DNA of 24,165 nt from a virus (lineage: Duplodnaviria; Heunggongvirae; Uroviricota; Caudoviricetes), in IMG/VR virus record IMGVR_UViG_648276649_000003. One strand, given 5' to 3'. The position numbers and the translations under genes are program-made. Positions 255 to 17,322 of the stretch are shown here, piece after piece; position 1 is the first letter of the stretch, and each line of letters starts with the position of its first letter. The notes under the pieces are model-generated. The model was not told the origin of the DNA and made no database searches. It saw only the letters and a list, made by a program, of their open reading frames with translations.

Positions 255-932
255 ATGTCCATCATTTTTAATGGACACTATCGTATGAAACACCGGACCT
301 GGATCACTGAAGCTTTACGTCTTCACTTTGAAGAACATTTACCCCGGGTTGTGGCCGGGCGTCGCCTGGGTGTACCAAAATCAACAGTTTGTAGTATGTT
401 CGTGCGCTTTCGGAGAGCTGGCCTTTCGTGGCCTTTGCCCGCAGGCATGTCGGAGCAGGAACTTGATGCCTGCCTTTACGGACAATTTTCCACGGTACCA
501 GTCGTACGTCCTGAAAGCACCGTTATATCCGAAGCCCCCATGGTAAAAAAACGTCCCCGGCGGCCCAACTTCCCTTATGAGTTTAAAATCGCCTTAGTGG
601 AGCAGTCACTGCAGCCCGGAGCCTGTGTGGCGCAGATCGCCCGGGAAAACGGAATCAACGATAACCTGCTCTTCAACTGGCGCCATCAATACCGGAAAGG
701 TGGCCTGCTGCCTTCCGGAAAAAATATGCCGGCACTGCTTCCCGTGACGTTAACGCCGGAGCCGGATAATAAAATCCCGGCCCCCGCACAGGAACCAGAG
801 CAGATAAATACACCGTCCGACAGTCTGTGTTGTGAGCTGGTTCTGCCGGCCGGAACTCTCAGGCTTAAAGGTAAACTGACGCCGGCGTTATTACAGACAC
901 TTATCCGCGAAATAAAAGGGAGCAGCCACTGA
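255..932 (+). CDS. IS66-family accessory protein (orf1, TnpA-like, HTH)
   Basis: First ORF of the IS66-type three-gene set; ATG start; stop overlaps the start of orf2 (932). Confidence 0.65.
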   Translation: MSIIFNGHYRMKHRTWITEALRLHFEEHLPRVVAGRRLGVPKSTVCSMFVRFRRAGLSWPLPAGMSEQELDACLYGQFSTVPVVRPESTVISEAPMVKKRPRRPNFPYEFKIALVEQSLQPGACVAQIARENGINDNLLFNWRHQYRKGGLLPSGKNMPALLPVTLTPEPDNKIPAPAQEPEQINTPSDSLCCELVLPAGTLRLKGKLTPALLQTLIREIKGSSH

Positions 933-1279
933 TGATATCTCTCCCTGCAGGTTCGCGTATCTGGCTGGTTGCAGGTATCACCGATATGCGAAATGGCTTT
1001 AACGGCCTGGCATCAAAAGTTCAGAACGTCCTGAAGGATGACCCGTTCTCCGGACACCTGTTCATCTTCCGCGGACGCCGGGGTGACCAGATAAAAGTGT
1101 TGTGGGCTGACAGTGACGGACTGTGCCTCTTCACCAAACGCCTGGAGCGGGGCCGCTTCGTCTGGCCAGTCACCCGTGACGGCAAGGTGCACCTTACTCC
1201 GGCTCAGTTATCCATGCTTCTTGAAGGTATCAACTGGAAGCACCCGAAACGAACGGAACGCGCTGGAATCCGCATATAA
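932..1279 (+). CDS. IS66-family Orf2 (TnpB-like) protein
   Basis: 115-aa product with the characteristic MISLPAG...IWLVAGITDMR...GL N-terminus of IS66 Orf2; translationally coupled to orf1. Confidence 0.85.
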   Translation: MISLPAGSRIWLVAGITDMRNGFNGLASKVQNVLKDDPFSGHLFIFRGRRGDQIKVLWADSDGLCLFTKRLERGRFVWPVTRDGKVHLTPAQLSMLLEGINWKHPKRTERAGIRI

Positions 1280-1298
1280 CCCGTTGTAAAGTGAGGAT

Positions 1299-2870
1299 AT
1301 GGACACCTCACTTGCTCATGAGAACGCCCGCCTGCGGGCACTGTTGCAGACGCAACAGGACACCATCCGCCAGATGGCTGAATACAACCGCCTGCTCTCA
1401 CAGCGGGTGGCGGCTTATGCTTCCGAAATCAACCGGCTGAAGGCGCTGGTTGCGAAACTGCAACGTATGCAGTTCGGTAAAAGCTCAGAAAAACTTCGTG
1501 CAAAAACCGAACGGCAGATACAGGAAGCACAGGAGCGAATCAGCGCACTTCAGGAAGAAATGGCGGAAACGCTGGGTGAGCAATATGACCCGGTACTGCC
1601 ATCCGCCCTGCGCCAGTCTTCAGCCCGTAAACCGTTACCGGCCTCACTTCCCCGTGAAACCCGGGTTATCCGGCCGGAAGAGGAATGCTGTCCTGCCTGT
1701 GGTGGTGAACTCAGTTCTCTGGGATGTGATGTGTCAGAGCAACTGGAGCTTATCAGCAGCGCCTTTAAGGTTATCGAAACACAACGTCCGAAACAGGCCT
1801 GTTGCCGGTGCGACCATATCGTGCAGGCACCAGTACCTTCAAAACCCATTGCACGCAGTTATGCCGGAGCGGGGCTTCTGGCCCATGTTGTCACCGGGAA
1901 ATATGCAGACCATCTGCCGTTATACCGCCAGTCAGAAATATACCGTCGTCAGGGAGTGGAGCTGAGCCGTGCCACACTGGGGCGCTGGACAGGTGCTGTT
2001 GCTGAACTGCTGGAGCCGCTGTATGACGTCCTGCGCCAGTATGTGCTGATGCCCGGTAAAGTCCATGCTGATGATATCCCCGTCCCGGTCCAGGAGCCGG
2101 GCAGCGGTAAAACCCGGACAGCCCGGCTGTGGGTCTACGTCCGTGATGACCGTAACGCCGGTTCACAGATGCCCCCGGCGGTCTGGTTCGCGTACAGTCC
2201 GGACCGGAAAGGTATCCATCCACAAAATCACCTGGCCGGTTACAGCGGTGTGCTTCAGGCCGATGCTTACGGTGGTTACCGGGCGTTATACGAATCCGGC
2301 AGAATAACGGAAGCCGCGTGTATGGCTCATGCCCGGAGAAAAATCCACGATGTGCATGCAAGAGCGCCCACCTACATCACCACGGAAGCCCTGCAGCGTA
2401 TCGGTGAACTGTATGCCATCGAGGCAGAGGTCCGGGGCTGTTCAGCAGAACAGCGTCTGGCGGCAAGAAAAGCCAGAGCCGCGCCACTGATGCAGTCACT
2501 GTATGACTGGATACAGCAACAGATGAAAACACTGTCGCGTCACTCAGATACGGCAAAAGCGTTCGCATACCTGCTGAAACAGTGGGATGCACTGAACGTG
2601 TACTGCAGTAATGGCTGGGTGGAAATCGACAACAACATCGCAGAGAACGCCTTACGGGGAGTGGCCGTAGGCCGGAAAAACTGGATGTTCGCGGGTTCCG
2701 ACAGCGGTGGTGAACATGCGGCGGTGTTGTACTCGCTGATCGGCACATGCCGTCTGAACAATGTGGAGCCAGAAAAGTGGCTGCGTTACGTCATTGAACA
2801 TATCCAGGACTGGCCGGCAAACCGGGTACGCGATCTGTTGCCCTGGAAAGTTGATCTGAGCTCTCAGTAA
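1299..2870 (+). CDS. IS66-family transposase (TnpC)
   Basis: 523-aa product with N-terminal coiled-coil/leucine-zipper region, CxxC...CxxC zinc-finger motif (CPACGG...CCRCDH) and conserved C-terminal core of IS66 transposases. Confidence 0.9.
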
Positions 2871-4125: not shown

Positions 4126-4995
<870 letters not shown>

Positions 4996-5020
4996 GTCTT
5001 TAAGTGATAAGCATAAACCG

Positions 5021-5070
5021 CAGCACGATCTTGCATACGACGTGCTACGGTTTCATTTATCTCCGACCGG
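5021..5070 (+). repeat. Hairpin-repeat copy C: AGCACGATCTTGCATACGACGTGCTACGGTTTC
   Basis: Lies between the convergent stops of the GIY-YIG gene (4995) and pin (5053); palindromic stem AGCACG/CGTGCT with conserved loop TCTTGCATA; T-rich after the stem, so a possible bidirectional terminator. Confidence 0.55.
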
Positions 5071-5607
5071 AAACTTCTTATACAGTGTCGATATACCAAC
5101 ATCATAGATGATCGCCACCTTCTGGCGAGGAACGCCTGATGCAATTAATCGCCCGGCCTGCGCCCATTGTTCTGGTGTAAGTTTGGGACGACGTCCACCA
5201 ATTCGTCCCTGTGCGCGAGCAGCTTCCAGTCCAGCTTTTGTTCGTTCAACAATCAGTTCTCGTTCCATTTCAGCCAGGGCACCCATCACATGAAAGAAAA
5301 AACGCCCCATCGGTGTGCTGGTATCAATAGCATCCGTCAGGCTGCGAAAATTAACGCCACGTTCGCGCAACTCCTCAACCAGAATGACCAGATGCCGCAT
5401 ACTACGCCCTAGCCGATCCAGCTTCCAGACAACCAGAGTGTCACCTGCCGATAATGTCCTGAGCAGTTTTTTCAGTCCCGGCCTTTCGGACTTTGTACCG
5501 CTTATCTTGTCTTCAAAAATCAGCTCGCATCCTGCACAGTTCAGCGCATTACGTTGTAGATCTGTGTTCTGGTCATTTGTTGACACACGTACATAGCCAA
5601 TAAGCAT
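5053..5607 (-). CDS. pin: Serine-recombinase DNA invertase (Pin/Gin/Hin family)
   Basis: MLIGYVRVSTNDQ catalytic-serine N-terminus, resolvase core and C-terminal HTH. Start taken at the MLIGY methionine (5607) rather than the upstream in-frame ATG at 5643. Immediately adjacent to an invertible segment. Confidence 0.85.
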   Translation of the reverse strand: MLIGYVRVSTNDQNTDLQRNALNCAGCELIFEDKISGTKSERPGLKKLLRTLSAGDTLVVWKLDRLGRSMRHLVILVEELRERGVNFRSLTDAIDTSTPMGRFFFHVMGALAEMERELIVERTKAGLEAARAQGRIGGRRPKLTPEQWAQAGRLIASGVPRQKVAIIYDVGISTLYKKFPVGDK

Positions 5608-5633
5608 GGTAGATCTCCCTGACAAAAGCAGGA

Positions 5634-6146
5634 ATGATGCCATTTGCTCGTTATTTCTGCATTTTCATAAACGTTGGTTTGGGAGAAGGTTCTGCATTGC
5701 CGGTTGGCGTCCCCATTCCGTGGCCGTCAGCAACGCCACCAAAGGGATGGCTTAAATGCAACGGAGCCGCGTTCACTGCCTCCCAGTACCCTAAACTGGC
5801 ACTAGCCTATCCAGACATGAAACTTCCAGACCTGCGGGGGGAGTTTATTCGTGGATGGGATGACGGACGCGGGGTTGATACTGGACGTTCGCTGCTTTCT
5901 GCGCAGGGAGGTACTTATATCGGGGTTGACTGGAAGAATGACACGCAGGCAACGGTAGTATTAGCAACAGCAACTGCTTATGACCTTAGCCCATTCCAAG
6001 GGGATAAATCACCATCCACAACTGCATTACAGTCTCAGACAATTACGGGTAGTACAGCGATGAATAAATTGAATGTTGACTCTGGCAACTCCATTGTTAG
6101 CCGTCCACGTAATATCGCATTTAATTATATTGTGAGGGCTGCATAA
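5634..6146 (+). CDS. Silent alternative tail-fibre C-terminal cassette, expressed only after inversion
   Basis: Begins inside the crossover site; its ...GLGEG-SALPVGVPIPWPSATPPKGW... continues in frame from the GLGEG encoded at the other crossover site in the expressed fibre gene; no independent N-terminal constant region. Confidence 0.6.
   Translation: MMPFARYFCIFINVGLGEGSALPVGVPIPWPSATPPKGWLKCNGAAFTASQYPKLALAYPDMKLPDLRGEFIRGWDDGRGVDTGRSLLSAQGGTYIGVDWKNDTQATVVLATATAYDLSPFQGDKSPSTTALQSQTITGSTAMNKLNVDSGNSIVSRPRNIAFNYIVRAA
5665..5688. repeat. Left inversion crossover site (Hin/Gin/Pin type): TTCATAAACG-TT-GGTTTGGGAGAA
   Basis: Dyad-symmetric site; its 13-bp core TTGGTTTGGGAGA recurs inverted at 7486-7498; about 67 bp from the pin start. 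Confidence 0.7.
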
Positions 6147-6751
6147 TGACTAAAGCGATACTGAATAATAATGGTATTTCCACGAAATCAGGTGATATTA
6201 CTGTTTACAATTATGATTGTGAGACGCGCGAATATCTTTCTTCAACGGTTGAATACTTACCCGTTGGTGTCGGCATTCCTGCGAATTCATGCACTGACGC
6301 ACCTGGCGAAAGCAAAGACGGATTTGCTATTTGTCGAACAGCAGACCTTACATCATGGATATACATTATCGACAAAAGAGGCCAAACCGTTTATAGCACA
6401 GAGACGATGCAACAAGTTCAAGTAACGACACTTGGCGATTATCCCACTCATACAACACCCATTGCCCCTACATCATTATATGATAAATGGAATGGGGAAC
6501 AGTGGGTAACAGATGTAGAAGCTCAGCACGCAGCCAATGTCGCTACTGCCGAAGGAGAAAAGCTGTCGAGAACTGACCAGGCCAATGACTATATGAACAA
6601 AAAGCAATGGCCCGGCAAGGCCGCATTAGGACGATTGACAGAGACAGAAAAAGAGCAATATAACCTATGGCTGGATTATCTCGATGCGCTGGAATCTGTG
6701 GACATATCCAGCGCACCAGATATCAACTGGCCTGAGTCGCCGGAGGAGTAG
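6146..6751 (+). CDS. Tail-fibre assembly protein (Tfa/U-like), silent orientation
   Basis: Start overlaps the stop of the preceding cassette (ATGA coupling); C-terminal tail-fibre-assembly domain features. Confidence 0.75.
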
Positions 6752-7154: not shown

Positions 7155-7786
7155 CCAATCGCGAAAACTCTAAAGCCACCGTAGCCAGCACATGTAATCT
7201 GAGTTCTTGTTACCGTCGTATAGTATGATCGGCCCACCGCTAAGCTATATGCGGCTGTAGAACTCAAATCAACTGCCCCAGTTGATACATCACTAAATAA
7301 CGGAATCATGCACTCATTTGGGAATGCAATAGGGAAATTCGCAGTTACTGGTGTCACATAATCAGTTGTAGCAGCACCAAACCACTGCAATATGATCACC
7401 CGTTCTTTCCCGGCGACCATTGCCGGGATAGTCATATAGCCTGTAGAGCCGGTCACACACACCGCTGCGCCTAATTTTGCTCCCTCTCCCAAACCAAGGT
7501 TTTCGAGAGCCGTTTTCACCGTGCCATCCGATTTGATATCGCCAAACGGATTCTTGCGGCTTAACAGCAGCGCACGAAGCGCTGTAAGTAGCTGGTCATG
7601 CCGCCCCTTCTCCAGGCTGGCACCGGATGCCTCCACAACACTGCAAAGTTCCTCCTGCAACATGTCAAAGTAGTCATCATCCAGATCGGTGGCAGGTGTG
7701 CCGGTCTGGGGGTTACCACGGGTAAAACCGTTCTTACCCGCGCCGAACTTATCCTTCTGCGCGGTTTTCGTATCTATACGATGCAT
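7148..7786 (-). CDS. Side tail-fibre protein (constant N-terminus plus currently expressed variable C-terminus)
   Basis: N-terminus [29 protein letters not shown] is typical of Stf-type fibres; the crossover site falls at about codon 96-102 (NLGLGEG). Confidence 0.75.
7478..7503. repeat. Right inversion crossover site (inside the tail-fibre gene)
   Basis: Reverse complement reads TCGAAAACC-TT-GGTTTGGGAGAGG, matching the left site at about 21 of 23 positions. Confidence 0.7.
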
Positions 7787-7789
7787 GGA

Positions 7790-8374
7790 TTACTCCGGAT
7801 ATTTAAAAATTACGTAGGTATGCGACGGGCAGAGTTTGTTAAGCACACACTCGACAACGGTGTCGCCCCAGATACGCAGTGCGGAATCACAGGGATCGCC
7901 ACATGTCATCCAGGTGGTGTTGGTGTCGGCTGGCATGTTGACCTGCCAGTAATACCGCCATTCCGGCGCATTCACCGCGTCAGTACAGGCCGATGAGCAG
8001 GTGAACGTGCTTTTGTCGTATCGCGTGATGGTGGCGTCTGGTCTGCCCAGGGCAGCAAGCTGTGCAAGGTAAAAATCCTCATTGATGCCGCCCGCCAGGT
8101 TAACCTTCGCATCCAGTCGTTGCTGACGCTGGCGAAGGGTCTGTGTCCCTGCGGGAATACATTCATCCGGCAGGCCGCACAGACGCTCCCAGCGATTTAT
8201 CAGTTCGGTGGTGGTGCGCGGATCCAGCTCCCGCATCAGGGCATCCGCACGCTGATGAACGCGGGTTAATGACTGTGCCGCACCGGCAATCGCCGGATCG
8301 CTGGCTGACCACGCCGGACCGGGCGGCAGCAGTGCCGACAACAGACGGATGTAATCATCGTTTGTCACGTCCAT
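7790..8374 (-). CDS. Phage tail protein, Mu gp48 / e14 YmfQ-like (DUF2313-type)
   Basis: 194 aa, directly upstream of the tail-fibre gene in the conserved Mu-like order; sequence and length resemble e14 YmfQ as I recall it. Confidence 0.65.
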
Positions 8375-9423
8375 GAAATCGTCCCCAGAACCGCCAGTTC
8401 ATTTTTTGCAATGGAGATATTGTCCGCCGGAGCAAGCAACTGATGGCTGTATTCCCCGTTCGCACCGGAAATCGCTTCACTGATACGCGATACCTTCAGC
8501 TCTCCCTGCGGATAACCATCACGCAGCAGGAATGAACGCAACTCTGCGGTAATGGCAGCCCGTATTTCCGGTGTGTCCGGCGTCACGCGGATATGAAAAT
8601 CCACCGTATGCGCCACCGGCCTGAACACATACAAATCAGAGCCTGCCACCGGGGCCAGTGGCTCAATGTGTTGTCTTGCCGCCGTTTCCGTTGATTCTTC
8701 CGGAATGGGATTAATCAGGTCACTGCTGGCAATCATCACACCGACAGTTCCCGTTCCCATCCAGTGACGGTATGTCCATGCGCGGGTAATGCCGGGCACT
8801 TCTTTAGCCCAGACGACATAGTCCCCGTCAGCCCCGCCCTGCGGCGTCCAGTAATACCGCTCAATGACGCGGGCGCGCCACGTTTCCAGATCTTCAGTAT
8901 CGAATCCGCCAGTCAGGGTATCTGCCACACCGGAAGACGGCAGACCATTCACCGGCGTGACCAGGATTAATGCCGTACCGTCGTCAGCGTTACCGACCGC
9001 GCCTGCAGTTGAGCAGGCGATCGGCACGCGCAGGACACCACCGGAGCTGGTTGCATCAGAAGTTGCCGTGTACTGAACCAGGTCATCGCGCTGAATAACA
9101 CTCCCGGCGGTCACCTTCAGGCCATCGCTGACACCTTCCCAGCGCATATACCCGCTGGCAGACGTGGCCCCCTTGCGCGGACACCGTTTCATCGCAGCAT
9201 GTCGCGCCAGCCAGGACTCATCGCACAGGTCAGGCAGCATGTTCATTGCCAGATAATCGATGTAACCGTAAACCGTATGCAGCGCCGCCGCATACACCTT
9301 TGCCCGCACGTCTTCATCCATGCGCCGGAGCGTGTCGCTGACGTCCAGCCTAGCGAATAAATCGTTACGGAGCATACTGATATTTTCTGCCAGCGTCGGG
9401 CGTTGAAATTCACTGTCCGCCAT
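8365..9423 (-). CDS. Baseplate J-like protein (Mu gp47 family)
   Basis: 352 aa; position and conserved baseplate-J-like sequence in the Mu-type baseplate block. Confidence 0.75.
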
Positions 9424-9838
9424 GCGTTATCGCACTCCACAGATCATCAAAAGAAATCATTACCGGTCCGTCACGACGCCAGAGGGTGATACTGTTACCC
9501 AGCTCATTAATCCCGGTGCGGCGGATATCCAGATCAATACGGGACACTACGCCGTCATCAATCATCCATTGCAGGCATTCGCGGATATATCCCCTTACCG
9601 TCTGCACCAGCTGATTGGTCAGTTTGCTGCGCTGAAGCAGCCACAGTCGGGAGCCGTAACGGTCATTCTGTACCGCAGGCCAGGTATCCCCCCACCATCC
9701 CATCGGGACGTCGGCATTGTCATCAGGTTCAGCCCGCCGCCAGGTGAACAGGGAAATCACCACGGCACGGGTCAGCGGATCCAGCGGTGCGCTGGCGCAG
9801 GTGCGTTTACCGTTCACCGTCAGCCACAGTTCCATCAT
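9410..9838 (-). CDS. Baseplate protein, Mu gp46-like
   Basis: 142 aa; synteny between baseplate V and baseplate J homologues; overlapping starts and stops. Confidence 0.6.
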   Translation of the reverse strand: MMELWLTVNGKRTCASAPLDPLTRAVVISLFTWRRAEPDDNADVPMGWWGDTWPAVQNDRYGSRLWLLQRSKLTNQLVQTVRGYIRECLQWMIDDGVVSRIDLDIRRTGINELGNSITLWRRDGPVMISFDDLWSAITHGGQ

Positions 9839-10383
9839 GCCTCCATCGCTTTATCAGGTTTGTCGGTGTTACTGCCCTGACCGTTCTCTCTGTGACGATG
9901 CCCGTTATAGGCAAGCCGCATCGCTGACATGGTGGTGCCGGTGGAGTCGCACAGGTCTTTCACCTGTCCGGTCACTTCCAGGTCCATTTCAAAACGAGCC
10001 TTAGGCGCATTGCGAAACGTGATCGTTTTACCTGCACCGTCCACCACGATCCCCTCCCGGGTCAGCGTCACGGACTGCCCCTGATCGTCATAGACAGCCA
10101 CCTCCCCCGTATGCAGCCCTTTCAGGCGGTAGCGCCGGTCCGACACCGTAACAACCACCGCATGAGAACGGTCGCCATCCGGAAACAACACCACCGCTTC
10201 CGCACCGCTGTTTGCCCTTGCGGTAAAACCGTAGGGTTCAAGATGTTCAACCCCGGCTTTGGGTTCACCGGCAATCAGGGACACATCCACGGTCTGACAT
10301 TTCGTGGCGGCACTGATGCTTTTCACCACTGCCCGCCCAATCAGGCCGAGAAGTTGTCGCTGCATGGCTTCAATCGTCCTCAT
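9835..10383 (-). CDS. Baseplate assembly protein V / spike (Mu gp45-like)
   Basis: 182 aa; gpV-like spike sequence; synteny. Confidence 0.65.
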   Translation of the reverse strand: MRTIEAMQRQLLGLIGRAVVKSISAATKCQTVDVSLIAGEPKAGVEHLEPYGFTARANSGAEAVVLFPDGDRSHAVVVTVSDRRYRLKGLHTGEVAVYDDQGQSVTLTREGIVVDGAGKTITFRNAPKARFEMDLEVTGQVKDLCDSTGTTMSAMRLAYNGHRHRENGQGSNTDKPDKAMEA

Positions 10384-11462
10384 CAGAACGGGTCCTCCTG
10401 TACTCTGGCTTTTTTCTTTTTCCGCGCGCCGGGGTCTTCAGGTTCAGGCAGATAAGCATCAGGCGGGCCGACACGGATTTCCGTCAGGGTACCGTTCTGG
10501 TCCTGAGTAAACGTGACTTCCGAAACAAGCAGTTCGGTATTGTCAAAACCACAGACCGGATCAAAGACAATCACCCGCTGGTTGGGTTGCCACAGCGTAC
10601 CGTTACCCTGTCGCCAGCCCTGCACCACATAGGTGGTTTCATCCGTCCGCGCCGCCCGTTGCCGGGCTTCAAAGTCAGCACGCGCAATACAGCCTGCCCC
10701 CGTAGCCTGCCCTGTCTGCCTGATATACATCGGACGGTAACGGGCAATAAATGCGTCCTCTGTGCGGGCCCGCAGCGCGGTGGTGGTGGCCTCACCGAAA
10801 TCATCGTCGTTTCCGGCACGCTGCCCCGCCACCTGGTAAACAGAAAACCGCTCCCGGATACTCTTCTCCGTATCGCAGGAAAGGATGTTTTCCCCAAGTA
10901 CCAGCGCGGTATGTGCCCGCGTTGAGCCAATACCGCCAATCACCAGCCTGCCGTGCGGATCGTCGTAAGCCAGTGCCTGCTGCTGACCGAGTATTTTGTT
11001 GATTACCTCAATCACCGTTTCACCGTGATCAGGCTGGACATCAGGAATAACACCCGACGGCGCACCGCTGTTCACCACCTCAATGCCGAAAGGCGCAGCA
11101 AGCGCCTGCGCAATCTGTACCAGCGATCGTCCGTTAAACTGTGTCGGTTCGGCTGCACAGTCAATCAGGTCAGCGGTCAGACTGCGTCCGGCAATACCGG
11201 TGCTGACCGAACGGGCATCGTAACGAACGGGAGTCGCCTCCACCCAGCCGGTGATCACCAGCTCATCACCAATCAGCACTTCCACTTTTGAACCGTTTTT
11301 AATGCGCGGCTGAAGCGTGGTGATACCCTCATCTCCCGGCCACTGGCGGGTGATCTCCACACTGAAATCCCGCGCCAGCCGTTCAATACCGGCACCGATG
11401 CGCACCGAAGTCCAGCCATTCCACTCCCGGCCATTTACCCGTAGCGTGACGTTATCGTTCAT
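10383..11462 (-). CDS. Baseplate hub / tail protein (Mu gp44, P2 gpD-like)
   Basis: 359 aa at the expected position upstream of gp45; translationally coupled. Confidence 0.55.
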   Translation of the reverse strand: MNDNVTLRVNGREWNGWTSVRIGAGIERLARDFSVEITRQWPGDEGITTLQPRIKNGSKVEVLIGDELVITGWVEATPVRYDARSVSTGIAGRSLTADLIDCAAEPTQFNGRSLVQIAQALAAPFGIEVVNSGAPSGVIPDVQPDHGETVIEVINKILGQQQALAYDDPHGRLVIGGIGSTRAHTALVLGENILSCDTEKSIRERFSVYQVAGQRAGNDDDFGEATTTALRARTEDAFIARYRPMYIRQTGQATGAGCIARADFEARQRAARTDETTYVVQGWRQGNGTLWQPNQRVIVFDPVCGFDNTELLVSEVTFTQDQNGTLTEIRVGPPDAYLPEPEDPGARKKKKARVQEDPF

Positions 11463-12127
11463 TGCACTGGCACCTTCAGAGGGATCACCGGCACAAAGCC
11501 GGGATGCGTAATGGCATTACGCCGGATAATGTCCGCGTCACGCGTCGCGTTATCAAACCATGTCGCCGCCAGCACCAGCGCGGGTAAAACCTCATCCGGT
11601 GTGCGCTGAATGATCCGTGCAGACTGTTCAAGGCGCGTGTTGATATCCGCATTCAGATCTGCTTTCACCCGGCGCAGCGCCAGAAACAGCGCATCACTGG
11701 TTGTACGGGACAACTCCTTATCAATTGCCGTATTCAGTGTGTCGCGAATGTCAGTCAGTTCTTCCCACGTCGGCAGATCAACCATGTTTTTCATCGCCGG
11801 TGCATTGTTCAGTGCCGGATGCGTGACGGAAGGCCAGCCGGTGCTCTGTGCAGCTGTTGTTGCCTGCCCCACTGCGGCATTCTGCATCACCGCGGAAGTT
11901 GTTGGCGCAGGCAATCGGGTGACGGCATACGCCGCTTCGCTGATTGCGGTCGTACGAAGGGTGCTGGCAACCACGTTACGCTGCTGCGTCGCCGTAGCGG
12001 TGGTTTTACTGTCCGTTTTCCAGACGCCGCGCGGTTGCAGATCACTGCCGAGGCTGACACCGGAAAGCGTTTTGATCATGGTGACCAGGTCGCTGGCGTT
12101 ACCATAAAGGCGTTTCCGGAACGGCAA
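11459..12127 (-). pseudogene. C-terminal fragment of a tail protein (Mu gp43 DNA-circulation-like), N-terminus deleted
   Basis: 222-aa ORF at the position of the gene upstream of the hub, far shorter than full-length homologues; abuts an unrelated sheath N-terminal fragment in another frame. Confidence 0.45.
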
Positions 12128-12395
12128 TCACATACAGCTCACCAAACGGGTCGGTCTGGCGATAAGCCTCGACCATACGCGCCAGCTGACTTCCCGCACC
12201 ACAAATCTGGCGTGCATAGTCTGCCGACGGCATCAGCACCAGACTGTTGGCAACAATCTCTGCACCGTTATTGGCATGACCAATCAGCAGCGATGCTCCG
12301 CTGTCCTGTGCAGTATTCGCAGCCTGGTTATCCATTTCCGCATAAAACAGCGGAACCAGCGTATTCGACGGAATGGTGTTAAAGCTTATCGTCAT
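12099..12395 (-). pseudogene. N-terminal fragment of a contractile tail sheath protein (truncated after about 98 codons)
   Basis: MTISFNTIPSNTLVPLFYAEMDN... is a canonical sheath N-terminus; the ORF stops at 12099 where the out-of-frame tail-protein fragment begins, so a deletion has removed the rest of sheath, tube and tape-measure genes. Confidence 0.55.
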
Positions 12396-12557
12396 CGGTG
12401 TTCACCTTTTTATTCACGCGCCGGATATCACCCGCTGCTTCACGGCGCAGCCAGTAGTTGTTCTCATCAACATTTCGCCCTTCGGCGGGCAAAAGGTCGC
12501 CGCGGGCAGGGTCAGGCACTGACCGCCCTTTAACAGGTTTCACAAACATGATGATCC

Positions 12558-12978
12558 TCAGGAAGGAAGGGGTATTTCGGTGTGATGTTCGATATCGCCG
12601 TCAGGCCCGTTACCGGGATCGAGATAATCAACATCAATCGCCAGCGTTCGCAGTTCATCCAGACTGTTCAGGTCATCCTGCTGGCGGGTATCGTCTTCGG
12701 TCAGCTCGCTGATGACCGAAAAATCGAACTGATAAATCAGCTCATGACGATTCAGATCCAGCAGCGTGCCGCCGTCATAGGTAATCGGGTTACCGCACGC
12801 TTCCGGGTGCCGACGTTGGTTTCGGCAGACGACGTAACTGCTCAACTATTGCTGCGCACGCCGCGCTCTGGAATTTTCGCCCCGCCTCGCTTATCAGGCT
12901 CTTACCAGCAAACGCTCCTTTGTTGGGGTGTCGCCAGTACGTGTTCACGCTGGGCGGAAAAGGCAGGATCAGCTTCAT
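12558..12978 (-). pseudogene. rusA-like Holliday-junction resolvase remnant (frameshifted or truncated)
   Basis: 62-aa ORF starts MKLILPFPPSVNTYWRH (RusA N-terminal signature) then ends prematurely; the downstream sequence continues in another frame (12558-12845). Confidence 0.45.
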
Positions 12979-13301
12979 ACTTTCAGGTCCCTCTCATGTA
13001 ACCAGTGGGTTGCACGCAGCCTTGCGTTTTCCTCACCGGCAAGCAGTGCGCGGATAATCCCGACCGCCTCGCTGTCGTCGTCCTTCACCGCGGTATGAAG
13101 CGTTATCCCCCGGGCCATGCCACGCTTTATCGTGATGACGCCTTTTTTCTCCAGTGCGCGAAGATGCTCCACCGCTGCATTCACCGAACGGTATCCCAGC
13201 ATGGTTGCCACCTCCTGATTGGTTGGCGGGAAGCCACGTTCTTTCTGATAAGAAATCAGCATATCCAGCACCTGCTGCTGGCATTGAGTTAACGTCGTCA
13301 T
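12975..13301 (-). CDS. LexA N-terminal DNA-binding-domain-like protein lacking the S24 peptidase domain
   Basis: 108 aa; LTQCQQQVLDML...GFPPTNQEVATMLGYRSVNAAVEHLRALEKKGVITIKRGMARGI aligns with the LexA winged-helix pattern (LT.RQQ.V...G.PPT..E.A..LG.RS.NAA.EHL.AL..KGVI.I..G..RGI); no Ala-Gly cleavage site or Ser/Lys peptidase domain follows. Confidence 0.6.
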   Translation of the reverse strand: MTTLTQCQQQVLDMLISYQKERGFPPTNQEVATMLGYRSVNAAVEHLRALEKKGVITIKRGMARGITLHTAVKDDDSEAVGIIRALLAGEENARLRATHWLHERDLKV

Positions 13302-13951
13302 GCCGCCATCTCCCTGACCAGTTTTTCCGCCTGCTGGCGAACCTGCGCCAGAAACGCCTCACCACATGCCTCAAGTTCATCGCGCCCGATGTAGCTGATT
13401 GCCGGTCCCTTCCATGTCTTGTCAAAAACAGCAATAGCACCAGCGAAAAAAGCTCCTGTCGGTACCTGCTTCTCGTCTTTCGGGATAAACCAGACAGGCA
13501 GTTCAAAACCAATACGCCCGCGAATAAAAGCAATATGATCTGCATCTTCCGGCCACCACACTTCGCTGGTGGCAGCTTTGATCAGGAAAACATAGCGCCC
13601 GCCCTTATCACGCATGGCACTGGCATGTTTCATGATGTAACGCATGCCGGTGATGTATTGCCCCTCATGCTGACTGGCGCGGCTGTATGGGGGATTACCA
13701 AAGGCAGCACCTTTAAGCTCCGCAAGACGTTCTGACCAGTCATGCGCCAGCGCGTTGTCTTCCGCCGTGTAATACGCGGCACATTTGGCGTTATCACCGT
13801 CAGTGAACAGATCCAGAACAAACGGGCCAAACAGGGTGTTAATTCCCCAGAAAATGTTGTCCGGCGTGCGCCACTGATCGCCCACTTCCTTCAGTTCATG
13901 GGCTGGTTTGTTCCGCAGTTCCACCAGCGTCTGGCAATATTTATTACTCAT
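13298..13951 (-). CDS. Phage-type N6-adenine DNA methyltransferase (Dam-like, orphan)
   Basis: NPPY-type catalytic motif (FGNPPYS). Start placed at the MSNKYCQ methionine (13951), which overlaps the upstream stop by one base (TAATG); an in-frame upstream ATG at 13984 is an alternative. Confidence 0.7.
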   Translation of the reverse strand: MSNKYCQTLVELRNKPAHELKEVGDQWRTPDNIFWGINTLFGPFVLDLFTDGDNAKCAAYYTAEDNALAHDWSERLAELKGAAFGNPPYSRASQHEGQYITGMRYIMKHASAMRDKGGRYVFLIKAATSEVWWPEDADHIAFIRGRIGFELPVWFIPKDEKQVPTGAFFAGAIAVFDKTWKGPAISYIGRDELEACGEAFLAQVRQQAEKLVREMAA

Positions 13952-14445
13952 TAAGCCCCCACGTAATTCCCTGACAGATACCACTCTTCACCCGATGCAG
14001 CGCGCTTGCTGCTTTTCCGTAAGCACCGCTCACGACGCGCCAGAAAATTGTTTCGTTCTGGCTGGGAGTGGCTTTCACGGAATGCCGCCATCCACACGGT
14101 TGCAGCACGACGGTATAAGCCCCTGGACTCCAGTTCTTCCGCCTGGCGGGTCAGGCACAAAATCACACGGGGATCGTTAGTGCCGACATAGAAATTGCGC
14201 ACAGGTCTGGTTTCACGAACTGGTTGTGGTTCCGGTTCCTGCGCTCTCTCAGTCAGGCGCGGGAAATGTCTGCGTGTATCTCCTTCACAACGGTGAGCCA
14301 CACGCCCACTCTGACGTAACTTGCTTGCTGACTGCAGAACGCGCTGCCGTGAGTAACCGGCAAAAGCATCCGCAATATCTCCGGAAGTACAGCCCGGATG
14401 GGCTTCAATGAATTTCTGAACGTCATTCAAAAGACTCATGCTCAC
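13951..14445 (-). CDS. Putative PerC-family-like regulator with an N-terminal extension
   Basis: C-terminal AEELESRGLYRRAATVWMAAF...RRERCL resembles the PerC/Pch signature as I recall it (AE.LE..GLYRRAA..W...RR..CL); identity is tentative. Confidence 0.45.
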   Translation of the reverse strand: MSMSLLNDVQKFIEAHPGCTSGDIADAFAGYSRQRVLQSASKLRQSGRVAHRCEGDTRRHFPRLTERAQEPEPQPVRETRPVRNFYVGTNDPRVILCLTRQAEELESRGLYRRAATVWMAAFRESHSQPERNNFLARRERCLRKSSKRAASGEEWYLSGNYVGA

Positions 14446-15383
14446 CCCCTGAATCCTGCCGGGATCTGGCTGTAGTCCACGTTGTCGTAACTGGCTTTGA
14501 AGTACGGGTCTTCGCGTTTTTCGGTGTACGTGCTGACGGACGGCGATAAGCGCAGGGAAAGCTCATCCCATTTTTCCCGCAGCTTCGACGGGCTGAGCAC
14601 GTTACGGCACCAGAACGGATCGCGACTGACGCGGCTGTACATCTCGCAGATTTGTTTATGAGTACGACCATCCTGCACACACATCAGGCGAATTTCGTTT
14701 GCCCAGGCTGTCCAGTTCGGTTCTTTGGGACGAACCACCTCGCCGTCACATTCGGCGGCCTGCTCGTACAGGGCGATGATTTTTTTCCAGAGCCACTGTG
14801 CGCAGGTCAAATCATCCTGCGTTCCCCACTGGCGCTTTTTAGGGCTGAATACAACCGCATCAGGATGGCGAGTTAAAAACTCCTGTTCAGCCGTCTGCGT
14901 GTCCGGTTGCGAAGCGTCCGGACGAGAAGTTTTTTTATCTGACGGATCATGTTTTGATTTTACTGACGGATCCCCGCCAGATTCTGACGGGTGAAAAACC
15001 GCTTTTTTGCCAGATTTCGACGCATCAAATTTTGACGGGTCAGATTTTGATGCGTCAGATTTTGACGGGTCAGAATCTGACAGTTGAGAAAATGCCGCTG
15101 CCTGAAGCTTCGCAACGTTAAGCTGATAAACATTCGACGCATTGCGGTTACCTTGGCGACGCGCCTTACGCGTTAACCAGCCTTCTGCTTCCAGCCGTGC
15201 GATAGCCGTTCTGACGGTACTCATCCCCGCGCCAATCTGACGGGCAATAGTTTCAATTGATGGCCAGCACACACCTTCGTCATTACTGAAATCAGCCAGG
15301 CGGGCCATAATTGCCACGCTGGATAATTTCATGCCTGACGCTGCGCAACCATCCCATACATAGCCGGTTAATTTAGTGCTCAT
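14442..15383 (-). CDS. Phage replication-initiation protein (N-terminal winged-helix DNA-binding domain, internal repeat linker)
   Basis: 313 aa; N-terminal HTH region; central low-complexity SKSD/ASKSD pentapeptide repeats encoded by 15-bp tandem DNA repeats; position next to the immunity region. Confidence 0.6.
   Translation of the reverse strand: MSTKLTGYVWDGCAASGMKLSSVAIMARLADFSNDEGVCWPSIETIARQIGAGMSTVRTAIARLEAEGWLTRKARRQGNRNASNVYQLNVAKLQAAAFSQLSDSDPSKSDASKSDPSKFDASKSGKKAVFHPSESGGDPSVKSKHDPSDKKTSRPDASQPDTQTAEQEFLTRHPDAVVFSPKKRQWGTQDDLTCAQWLWKKIIALYEQAAECDGEVVRPKEPNWTAWANEIRLMCVQDGRTHKQICEMYSRVSRDPFWCRNVLSPSKLREKWDELSLRLSPSVSTYTEKREDPYFKASYDNVDYSQIPAGFRG
14938..15085. repeat. Iteron-like tandem 15-bp repeats (CAGATTTTGACGGGT-like, at least 6 copies) embedded in the replication gene
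   Basis: Copies at 14978-14992, 15011-15025, 15026-15040, 15041-15055, 15056-15070 and 15071-15085, plus degenerate upstream copies; flanked by A/T runs (14930-14936, 15003-15008). Confidence 0.6.
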
Positions 15384-15392
15384 GACCGACCT

Positions 15393-15731
15393 CTATTTCC
15401 CTGAATTTACGACGAAACTGTTCGAGCGGGCTGAAGCACTCATGCTCATAGCCTTCACGGAGGTAGATAACCCGTTGTGTTTCCGGCTCCCAACGAATGA
15501 CTCTGACGGGCACTCCGTAGTGATCTTTGAACCAGCGGTTAACTTGTCGCAAAGGACTGTCTCCTTCTGCCGGTTAAAATCACCCACAGCCCACTCTGCA
15601 AAGCTGTGGGTTACAATTACCCTGCCACCTGGTACATTTACTGCATAGCAATACTCCACCTTCGCTTTTCCACCCGGTACAGGAAGCGCAATCAGTTGCG
15701 AGCGACGGTAGTGTGTTGTTAAACTATTCAT
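15393..15731 (-). CDS. Hypothetical phage protein (e14 YmfM-like by size and position)
   Basis: 112-aa ORF in the early-right operon between the immunity and replication genes; no recognisable motif. Confidence 0.45.
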
Positions 15732-16279
15732 GCGTTAGTTTCTCCACAGTCACGACACGCCACGGCGCCCGGAGCTGCACACTCGCGGGCGTCATTACTT
15801 TCTGAAATGCAAAAAATTTTGTAGACCAGTGCTGCATGCTCCTGCAGCTTCGAAATTGAGAGGTACAGCTCGTCGTTAATTGCTGTCTTCTCATGCGGTT
15901 CCACTACACCGTCTTCAATTGCTGAACGAATCTGTTTTGAATAACTGCCGATCTGTTCAATGACCTCCAGCAGGCGTTGGTTGATATCGGCGTTGTCCAC
16001 ATCCTCGACATCAGGAAGAGACACAAAGACGCCATTTGCAGACTGCGCCACAGCGTCAGCAATGAAGTGAGTTCCACCAGCACGTTGCAAAATCATTGCC
16101 CATCCCAGCGGGAAAATCTGATCGCCATCGGCACGAAGGCGGTTAAATAATGCGTTCTCTGTTACATCCAGCCAGTCAGCAGCTTCAGCGTAACCCCCCG
16201 GCAACGCTGCGATAGTTTTTCTGACAGCTTTCACGTACCACTCAGGCTGTTTTTCTACTTTCCAGTGATGCTTACCCAC
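15728..16279 (-). CDS. Hypothetical phage early protein (e14 YmfL-like by size and position)
   Basis: 183 aa, directly downstream of cro in the same operon; overlapping starts and stops. Confidence 0.5.
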
Positions 16280-16532
16280 GGTTCACCTCCTGTTCCTGTG
16301 GTTTAAACCCATTCTGGTTTTGGCTAGATTGAAAACGTGCCGGATAAAGAATCTGCATTTCGCTGACTTCACCCTTAAAAAAATTGGCTAAACGTTCTGC
16401 AAGCTCGATAGATGGAATCTGCTCCAGCCTCTCAATACGACTCAACGTCGCTGGATTGACTTGAACACCCGCAGCAACATGCTGCAAAGTGAAACCATGC
16501 GCCTTACGCACATTTCGTAATGGTGATTGCAT
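16272..16532 (-). CDS. Cro-like HTH (XRE-family) regulator
   Basis: 86 aa with HTH (GFTLQHVAAGVQVNPATLSRIE); divergent from cI; GGAGG Shine-Dalgarno 5 nt upstream of the ATG. Confidence 0.7.
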   Translation of the reverse strand: MQSPLRNVRKAHGFTLQHVAAGVQVNPATLSRIERLEQIPSIELAERLANFFKGEVSEMQILYPARFQSSQNQNGFKPQEQEVNRG

Positions 16533-16629
16533 ATAACCTCCAAATATTGCGCGTTATGCATGTTATTTCACGCAATTATTTTGCGCAAGTTGATTTGCTT
16601 ATCACGCAATAAAGAAATGTAATAAACGC
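16533..16629. promoter_or_regulatory. cro-cI divergent promoter/operator region with repeated TTGC...GCAA-type sites
   Basis: 97-bp intergenic region containing ATTGCGCG (16546-16553), TCACGCAA (16568-16575), palindromic TTGCGCAA (16581-16588) and a 15-bp site TTGCTTATCACGCAA (16595-16609). Confidence 0.6.
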
Positions 16630-17322
16630 ATGAACATAGGAAACCGAGTCAGACAACTTCGCCAAGCGAAGAACATGAAAATCGCCGATCTCGCTGAAGC
16701 AATAGGAGTAGATGCGGCGAACATCTCGCGCTTAGAAACGGGTAAGCAAAAACAATTTACCGAACAAACACTGAGTAATATTGCCAAGAGCTTAGGTGTT
16801 GATATTGCTGATCTCTTTACCTCTGCCCACAAAAGTAATACTGTATATAAAAACAGTAATAATGAGGATGTTGCGCAGGTGAAGGATGTGTTCCGTATTG
16901 AAATGCTGGATATCAGTGCCAGTGCGGGAAATGGCCTTATCCAGGGCGGTGATGTCATTGATGTGATTCATGCCATCGAATACAGAACTGATAATGCTGT
17001 ATCAATGTTCGGCGGACGACCAGCCAATCACATCAAAGTTATCAACGTTCGTGGGGACAGTATGTGTCCAACCATTGAGCCAGGAGATCTCATCTTCGTT
17101 GATGTCAGCATCAATCAGTTTGATGGTGATGGTATATATGTCTTTGGTTTTGATGACAAAATATACGTTAAAAGACTTCAAATGATTCCTGACAAACTGC
17201 TGGTGATTTCTGATAACCAGATTTACCGTGAATGGGGAATTACTAGCGAAAACGAACACCGATTCATGGTCTTTGGAAAGGTCTTAATCAGTCAGTCGCA
17301 AACCCTTAAGAGACATAATTAA
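16630..17322 (+). CDS. CI-like prophage repressor (HTH_XRE plus S24 LexA-like peptidase domain)
   Basis: 230 aa; N-terminal HTH (MKIADLAEAIGVDAANISRLETGKQ); C-terminal S24 signature (GDSMCPTIEPGDLIFVD ... YVKRL). Confidence 0.85.
   Translation: MNIGNRVRQLRQAKNMKIADLAEAIGVDAANISRLETGKQKQFTEQTLSNIAKSLGVDIADLFTSAHKSNTVYKNSNNEDVAQVKDVFRIEMLDISASAGNGLIQGGDVIDVIHAIEYRTDNAVSMFGGRPANHIKVINVRGDSMCPTIEPGDLIFVDVSINQFDGDGIYVFGFDDKIYVKRLQMIPDKLLVISDNQIYREWGITSENEHRFMVFGKVLISQSQTLKRHN

Follow-up and report, generated by a model that had tools for sequence, protein, structure and literature searches.

A stand-alone LexA-type winged-helix protein in the early operon of SfV-like prophages: a candidate uncleavable binder of SOS boxes

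A gene in the nin region of the prophage DNA analysed here (24,165 nucleotides; "the window") encodes a 108-residue protein that resembles the DNA-binding domain of LexA and stops short of the autocleavage domain. The locus thereby raises the question of what a LexA-type winged helix without a protease would bind, and what it would do, when it is made from a phage operon.

Profile and structure searches bear out the identification of this reading frame, made in an initial annotation from sequence alone, as a LexA winged helix. The protein matches Pfam LexA_DNA_bind (PF01726) over the whole profile (residues 1-65 on positions 1-65 of 65; E=2.1e-19; 69.5 bits against a cut-off of 23.7) and PHROG 362 ("transcriptional repressor") end to end (residues 1-108 on positions 1-106 of 106; E=1.5e-58), both memberships being above threshold and over the full domain, and a phmmer search of the PDB returns the E. 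coli LexA chains 1lea, 1jhh and 3jso with E about 1e-15. An AlphaFold2 (AF2) model built from 22 family sequences (mean pLDDT 80) has helices at residues 6-22, 28-35 and 40-52 and strands at residues 56-58 and 66-68; that is, the topology of LexA. Foldseek aligns the model with 1lea and 3jso over 66-67 columns at 51-52% identity and an rmsd of 1.1-1.3 Å, and DNA-bound E. coli LexA (3jso) superposes on the model at 1.1 Å. The protein thus shares its winged helix-turn-helix (1.1 Å, 51% identity) and the recognition-helix pattern SxNAAxEH with the LexA N-terminal domain, the autocleavage fragment 1-84.

The same searches uphold the second part of the identification: that is, the absence of the autocleavage domain. 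The Pfam search finds no Peptidase_S24 domain in the protein, which stops at residue 108, and the NCBIfam lexA equivalog profile, TIGR00498, is aligned at positions 1-91 of 203 only, with 71.1 bits against a cut-off of 110.95. Of the features that define LexA proper, the N-terminal winged helix-turn-helix is present; the S24 peptidase/dimerisation domain with its Ser119/Lys156 dyad, a full-length score and a functional Ala-Gly cleavage site are absent. Because the S24 domain is missing, RecA-stimulated self-cleavage of the protein is impossible. A PADLOC search gave a single result, weak and irrelevant. We conclude that the protein is a LexA-type winged helix without a protease, a match far beyond chance. 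The coordinates of the gene, its parts and its neighbours are collected in Table 1.

Table 1. Features of the LexA-like gene and its surroundings, in window coordinates.
Feature	Position	Strand	Basis or context
LexA-like gene (stand-alone LexA N-terminal-domain protein, 108 aa)	12975..13301, stop codon included	minus	ORF; PF01726, PHROG 362 and PDB LexA matches
Winged helix-turn-helix, residues 1-70	13092..13301	minus	AF2 model, Foldseek
Recognition helix, residues 39-52, SVNAAVEHLRALEK (LexA: SPNAAEEHLKALAR)	13146..13187	minus	sequence alignments
Segment resembling LexA hinge and cleavage-site strand, residues 71-91, vestigial AG at 88-89	13029..13091	minus	phmmer, TIGR00498
Family-specific C-terminal tail, two helices (75-87, 93-103), putative dimerisation module	12993..13079	minus	AF2, conservation
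Dam methyltransferase gene (phage), upstream of LexA-like gene; stop overlaps LexA-like start (ATGA)	13298..13984	minus	PF05869, E=1e-45
Truncated rusA, 62 aa; start overlaps LexA-like stop (ATGA)	12790..12978	minus	blastn against SfV
Immunity region: cro-like gene 16272..16532 (minus), divergent operator/promoter region, cI-like S24 repressor gene 16630..17322 (plus)	16272..17322		ORFs and homologue annotation
Near-consensus SOS box TACTGTATATAAAAACAGTA, 26.8 bits, candidate cis target	16839..16858		within linker of cI-like gene (plus)

The protein does not end where the linker of LexA begins, as had been supposed; the similarity continues through the hinge and the cleavage-site strand to about residue 91. 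In the phmmer alignment, residues 2-90 lie on LexA 2-86, with IIRALLAGEE opposite VGRVAAGEP, and the AG pair of LLAGEE aligns with the LexA cleavage site A84-G85. The glycine of this pair, G89, is not conserved in the family, the corresponding segment reading LLANE in close relatives and LLTGGD or MIAEEL in distant ones, and the segment is modelled by AF2 as a helix-turn, not a strand. The AG pair is vestigial.

Beyond the LexA-like part, the protein has a two-helix tail, which LexA lacks. Model confidence is 84-87 (pLDDT) over residues 81-100 and 61 over residues 71-80, where the first tail helix starts. The two-helix tail is conserved in mEp390 gp43 (47% identity) and in Klebsiella phage ST846-OXA48phi9.1 (39%), and when its 40 C-terminal residues were searched against 1.84 billion representative proteins, every match fell within the protein's own family. 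Other stand-alone lineages have other endings: the 71-residue protein of Edwardsiella phage EPP-1 has no tail, and that of Proteus phage vB_BPM-V3 has a NinF-type Cys-rich one. These differing tails fit the view that loss of the dimerisation domain was made good separately in each lineage, and the tail helices probably dimerise, taking the place of the S24 domain. The suggestion that the protein might heterodimerise with LexA fares poorly: LexA dimerises through its C-terminal domain (PMC10584840), which the phage protein does not have, so that heterodimers are unlikely, and the tail is private to the family.

The gene lies between dam and rusA in the nin region, as first reported, though rusA is reduced to a stump. 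The window is an SfV-like prophage adjoining proA, with internal deletions. Window positions 12806-14517 correspond to SfV 30759-29048 (rusA 5' end, orf42, dam, orf40), positions 12114-12811 to SfV 7792-7095, and positions 7475-12126 to SfV 16982-12330 (blastn), revealing within 7475..14517 two deletions relative to SfV: one joins the rusA 5' end to orf9, cutting rusA at about 12806-12811, and the other brings the 5' end of orf11, the tail sheath gene, up against orf15. The prophage is defective: it has lost Q, the terminase, lysis and head genes, and part of the tail genes, among them those for the sheath and the tape measure. The rusA stump has no Pfam match, and its junction occurs in none of 5426 complete E. 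coli genomes, so that the DNA may come from Shigella or from a private lineage. The LexA-like reading frame is intact, and the prophage also carries a CII (CP76)-like ymfL gene and a replication-O-like gene.

The start and stop codons of the LexA-like gene overlap those of its two neighbours, and we found no sigma-70-like promoter or terminator flanking it on its own strand. SfV has an annotated weak promoter for dam (TTGCGC/TACGGA), which in the window has decayed further, to CTGGCG. The proposal that the gene is a moron, with its own promoter and terminator and expressed from the repressed prophage, was therefore rejected. From the overlaps and the lack of signals of its own, the gene is best described as part of the early-right operon, translationally coupled to its neighbours; the order of the genes, with no signals between them, points to an operon under CI control, presumably exercised from the cI/cro immunity region. 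The gene would be expressed after loss of CI and not in the lysogen.

The family already carries annotation, and proteins of its kind are known: truncated LexA homologues encoded by phages. NCBI labels it "LexA family transcriptional regulator" (WP_000210137.1; SfV orf42; mEp460 gp46), the same protein family as PHROG 362; our literature search found no experimental or functional study of the enterobacterial family, existing names being annotation labels, and a paper on Gifsy-1 STM14_3218-3220 proved to be unrelated to it. Short proteins with a stand-alone LexA domain are also frequent elsewhere among phages, tectiviruses and mycobacteriophages included. DNA of the gene is present in 2233 of 5426 complete E. 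coli genomes (41%), with up to four copies in each, and tblastn finds the gene in 61 phage records, including SfV (orf42, "unknown"), SfII, SfIV, mEp460, cdtI, and Stx2a, Stx2c and Stx2k phages; close relatives occur in Citrobacter, Salmonella and Hafnia. Its location is constant: the nin region, where rusA follows it immediately or DUF968 and Q are no more than two genes away, whether or not dam is present. The window copy is identical in DNA sequence to copies in six E. coli genomes, and its protein is 95-97% identical to those of SfV, mEp460 and cdtI; the substitutions V62M and G105D are private to the window copy. For pairs among the six phage copies compared, dN/dS is 0.00-0.32, and for pairs that include the window copy it is 0.08-1.28, on few differences. 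By these ratios, the gene is under purifying selection.

Which DNA such a protein would bind can be approached through its recognition helix. In LexA, helix 3 contacts bases through S39, N41, A42, E44 and E45 (PMC3091678), and across phyla this helix sets LexA motif specificity (PMC4951493). The phage protein keeps four of the five contacts (S39, N41, A42, E45) and replaces E44 by V; family-wide, S39 and N41 are invariant and E45 is nearly so. Four of five divergent stand-alone lineages in enterobacterial phages retain the motif S-x-N-A-A, and the recognition helix of the Klebsiella lineage has diverged. The wing is more basic than that of LexA (K59 R60 vs V59 S60). With four of five contacts kept, binding to SOS boxes (CTGT-N8-ACAG) is plausible.

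Palindromes in the phage genomes point the same way. We counted CTGT/ACAG palindromes at spacings of 0-16 in 13 loci from carrier and related phages and compared the counts with shuffled sequences. The canonical spacing, N8, was the only one enriched (21 observed vs 3.8 expected); for CTGT-type half-sites in these 13 loci, no non-canonical palindrome tied to the LexA-like gene was enriched. A second enriched pattern, CCACAG-N14-CTGTGG, goes with a ymfL-like (CII-family) gene, and we rejected it as the operator of the LexA-like protein: it accompanies the ymfL-like gene, also in phiNP, in an 18-kb stretch of which no LexA-like gene was detected. In the window this palindrome (ACCCACAG-N14-CTGTGGGT, 15586..15607) is intergenic, between the ymfL-like gene (15728..16279) and a DUF4222-like ORF (15373..15552), and it recurs downstream of the ymfL/orf36-like gene in three sequence contexts: the SfV group, the window group and phiNP. 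The product of that gene is named "regulatory protein CII" in Stx2a_1447, and the window copy matches Pfam Phage_CP76 CII. Within the early-right operon the palindrome may serve as an operator or as a processing site.

The only strong SOS box in the window is the one inside the cI-like gene. It lies in the linker that separates the HTH domain from the S24 domain, with TTTACC-N17-TACTGT before it and GAGGA and in-frame GTG/ATG codons after it; box and TTTAC(C/A) element are kept in mEp460, Stx2a_1447 and the approximately 70%-identical phiNP repressor, although the protein sequence of the linker differs. The box may be a LexA-gated internal promoter for a repressor fragment consisting of the C-terminal domain alone. 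A further strong box (22-23.5 bits) starts 8 nt inside an N6_N4 DNA methylase gene placed between Q and the lysis genes, in Stx2 phages just upstream of stx. In SfV it occupies 34170..34189, and it recurs in other loci (L001:8659, L003 (mEp460):41021, L004 (cdtI):44083, L005:15934, L011:9071, L012:9067 and L013:9071). This box is conserved from E. coli phages to those of Klebsiella and Citrobacter; the window prophage has lost this region by deletion. Tandem SOS boxes precede a prophage dinI-like gene in mEp460 (23255/23283) and cdtI (26720/26748), both of which carry the LexA-like gene.

The late-methylase box and the LexA-like gene occur together in at least about 25 of 29 phage records, a co-occurrence that linkage within one module can explain. 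A strict rule that the gene tracks phage-borne SOS boxes was rejected, with Kati, mEp390 and phiNP as exceptions: neither Kati nor an 18-kb stretch of mEp390 contains an SOS box of 12 bits or more, though both carry the gene, and in 18 kb of phiNP, where SOS boxes lie in the cI and late-methylase genes, no copy of the LexA-like gene could be detected. Since carriage does not follow phage-borne SOS boxes, the targets, if they are SOS boxes, would be mainly in the host or in other elements.

A separate lineage offers an arrangement of a different kind. In EPP-1 (4231..5210), the stop codon of a Rha-family (antirepressor-like) gene overlaps the start of the gene for the 71-residue LexA-domain-only protein, and a 24.7-bit SOS box lies before the Rha-family gene, just upstream of a TACAAT −10-like hexamer. 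Judged by this arrangement, the unit would be SOS-controlled and potentially self-limiting; it suggests an SOS-induced antirepressor paired with a possible uncleavable LexA mimic, in a pulse-generating feedback.

We consider the best explanation, to which we would give slightly less than an even chance, to be that the LexA-like protein is an uncleavable SOS-box binder and repressor, supplied by the early operon, that re-represses LexA targets opened by RecA* once CI is lost. On this view the protein is a LexA paralogue that cannot be cleaved, has a recognition helix of gammaproteobacterial type and a short two-helix tail, and is encoded in the CI-repressed early-right operon in translational coupling with dam and rusA. 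From that position it would be made only after repressor loss or infection, at a time when, on this account, RecA* would already have destroyed the host LexA. It would then re-occupy CTGT-N8-ACAG boxes, from which RecA* could not remove it, and the SOS regulon would be damped or reset, in the SOS genes of the host, in functions that LexA controls in rival elements and in SOS-boxed genes of the phage itself.

In favour of this explanation we count the fold and sequence match, the retained contacts and S-x-N-A-A motif, the more basic wing, the low dN/dS among phage copies, the placement in the early operon, the enrichment of the canonical N8 spacing and the EPP-1 unit. We also count in its favour that the N-terminal domain of LexA, once freed, keeps its SOS-box binding and its repressor activity, for which reason ClpXP must remove the fragment in the host (PMC10584840). 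Against it we count the substitution of E44, a LexA contact residue; the diverged recognition helix of the Klebsiella lineage; dimerisation through the tail, which is putative; carriage that does not track phage SOS boxes; and the precedent of gp6 of GIL01, a Bacillus thuringiensis tectivirus, which shows that a truncated phage LexA homologue can switch operator and activate (PMC6182141).

That precedent defines the main alternative: a phage-specific transcription factor, which would bind its own operator and act as an activator or repressor of phage genes, such as those around Q and in the late region, and not of host SOS genes. gp6, the sole characterised phage-encoded truncated LexA homologue, is likewise a LexA DNA-binding domain without a catalytic domain, encoded in an early operon; it binds the changed operator GaCACAnnTGTGaC at the late promoter P3, using K38, and activates it (PMC6182141). 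The placement of the enterobacterial gene just upstream of DUF968 and Q in all lineages would suit such a role, as would the abundance of stand-alone LexA-domain proteins in phages of many hosts, and E44V together with the new tail could alter specificity, dimer geometry or contacts with RNA polymerase. The recognition helix nonetheless keeps host-type contacts, whereas gp6 reads a different operator; among CTGT-type half-sites in the 13 loci, non-canonical palindromes show no enrichment within or close to the co-inherited module, the CCACAG-N14-CTGTGG pattern belonging with the ymfL-like gene; and the protein has a helical tail that gp6 lacks and resides in lambdoid phages, the late genes of which already have the Q antiterminator. 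We regard this alternative as possible but on balance unlikely.

Were the protein instead a modulator acting through protein contacts, its LLAGEE segment and tail might serve as a decoy for S24 sites (in LexA, CI or UmuD), for RecA* or for ClpX; the initial annotation's idea of a dominant-negative modulator falls under this heading. The extension of LexA similarity through the cleavage-site strand is in keeping with a decoy, and phages do tune SOS by protein contacts, as with GIL01 gp7 on LexA (PMC4551915) and AriS of a Listeria phage. gp7 and AriS have the same outcome as that proposed here, a temperate phage that damps or reshapes host SOS and so influences co-resident elements; gp7 binds LexA itself and AriS acts through its ANT/KilAC domain, and neither is a LexA homologue or a proposed operator competitor. 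The variation at G89, the predicted helical state of the segment and the lack of the domain through which LexA dimerises all speak against the decoy, and the most conserved part of the protein is its set of DNA-contacting residues, an indication that selection has favoured DNA binding; we judge contact-based modulation improbable. Least probable of all, and by our estimate very unlikely, is a functionless, decaying fragment of a captured lexA. The erosion of the window prophage, with Q, lysis, head and part of the tail genes gone, and the private changes V62M and G105D could suggest decay, at least in this defective prophage; but the frame is intact, dN/dS among the six phage copies is low, the architecture is kept in other genera down to 39-47% identity, and the gene is found in viable phages as well as in 41% of complete E. 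coli genomes.

Compared with E. coli LexA, then, the phage protein shares the winged helix and the similarity through the hinge to the cleavage-site strand, lacks the S24 peptidase/dimerisation domain with its Ser/Lys dyad, carries V at position 44, a more basic wing and an added two-helix tail, and is encoded in a phage early operon, not behind SOS boxes of its own. A stronger form of the SOS-box explanation, which we hold to be conceivable but on balance unlikely, would make the protein an "SOS off-switch": an uncleavable dimer, joined by its two tail helices and made after CI is lost, that re-represses the whole LexA regulon during lytic growth. If so, it would silence SOS toxins, colicins, mutagenic polymerases and LexA-gated antirepressors of rival prophages, and would close the phage's own SOS-boxed promoters. 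Given carriage by Stx2 phages and by so many E. coli genomes, it could shape the induction dynamics of Stx phages and competition between prophages. If SOS boxes are indeed re-repressed, thousands of E. coli and Shigella prophages, Stx2a and Stx2c phages among them, would hold a RecA-proof damper of the DNA-damage response, which would affect antibiotic induction of toxin phages, the winner in polylysogens and SOS mutagenesis in lysogens. If the protein is instead gp6-like, it would add an unrecognised layer of control to lambdoid late development.

At the tail end of the window prophage, positions 255..2870 and 5053..6751 hold an IS66-family element (orfA-like, TnpB_IS66 and a 523-aa DDE transposase) and an invertase cassette, in which a Hin/Gin-type DNA invertase gene stands beside tail-collar and tail-fibre-assembly segments; it looks like an invertible host-range cassette.
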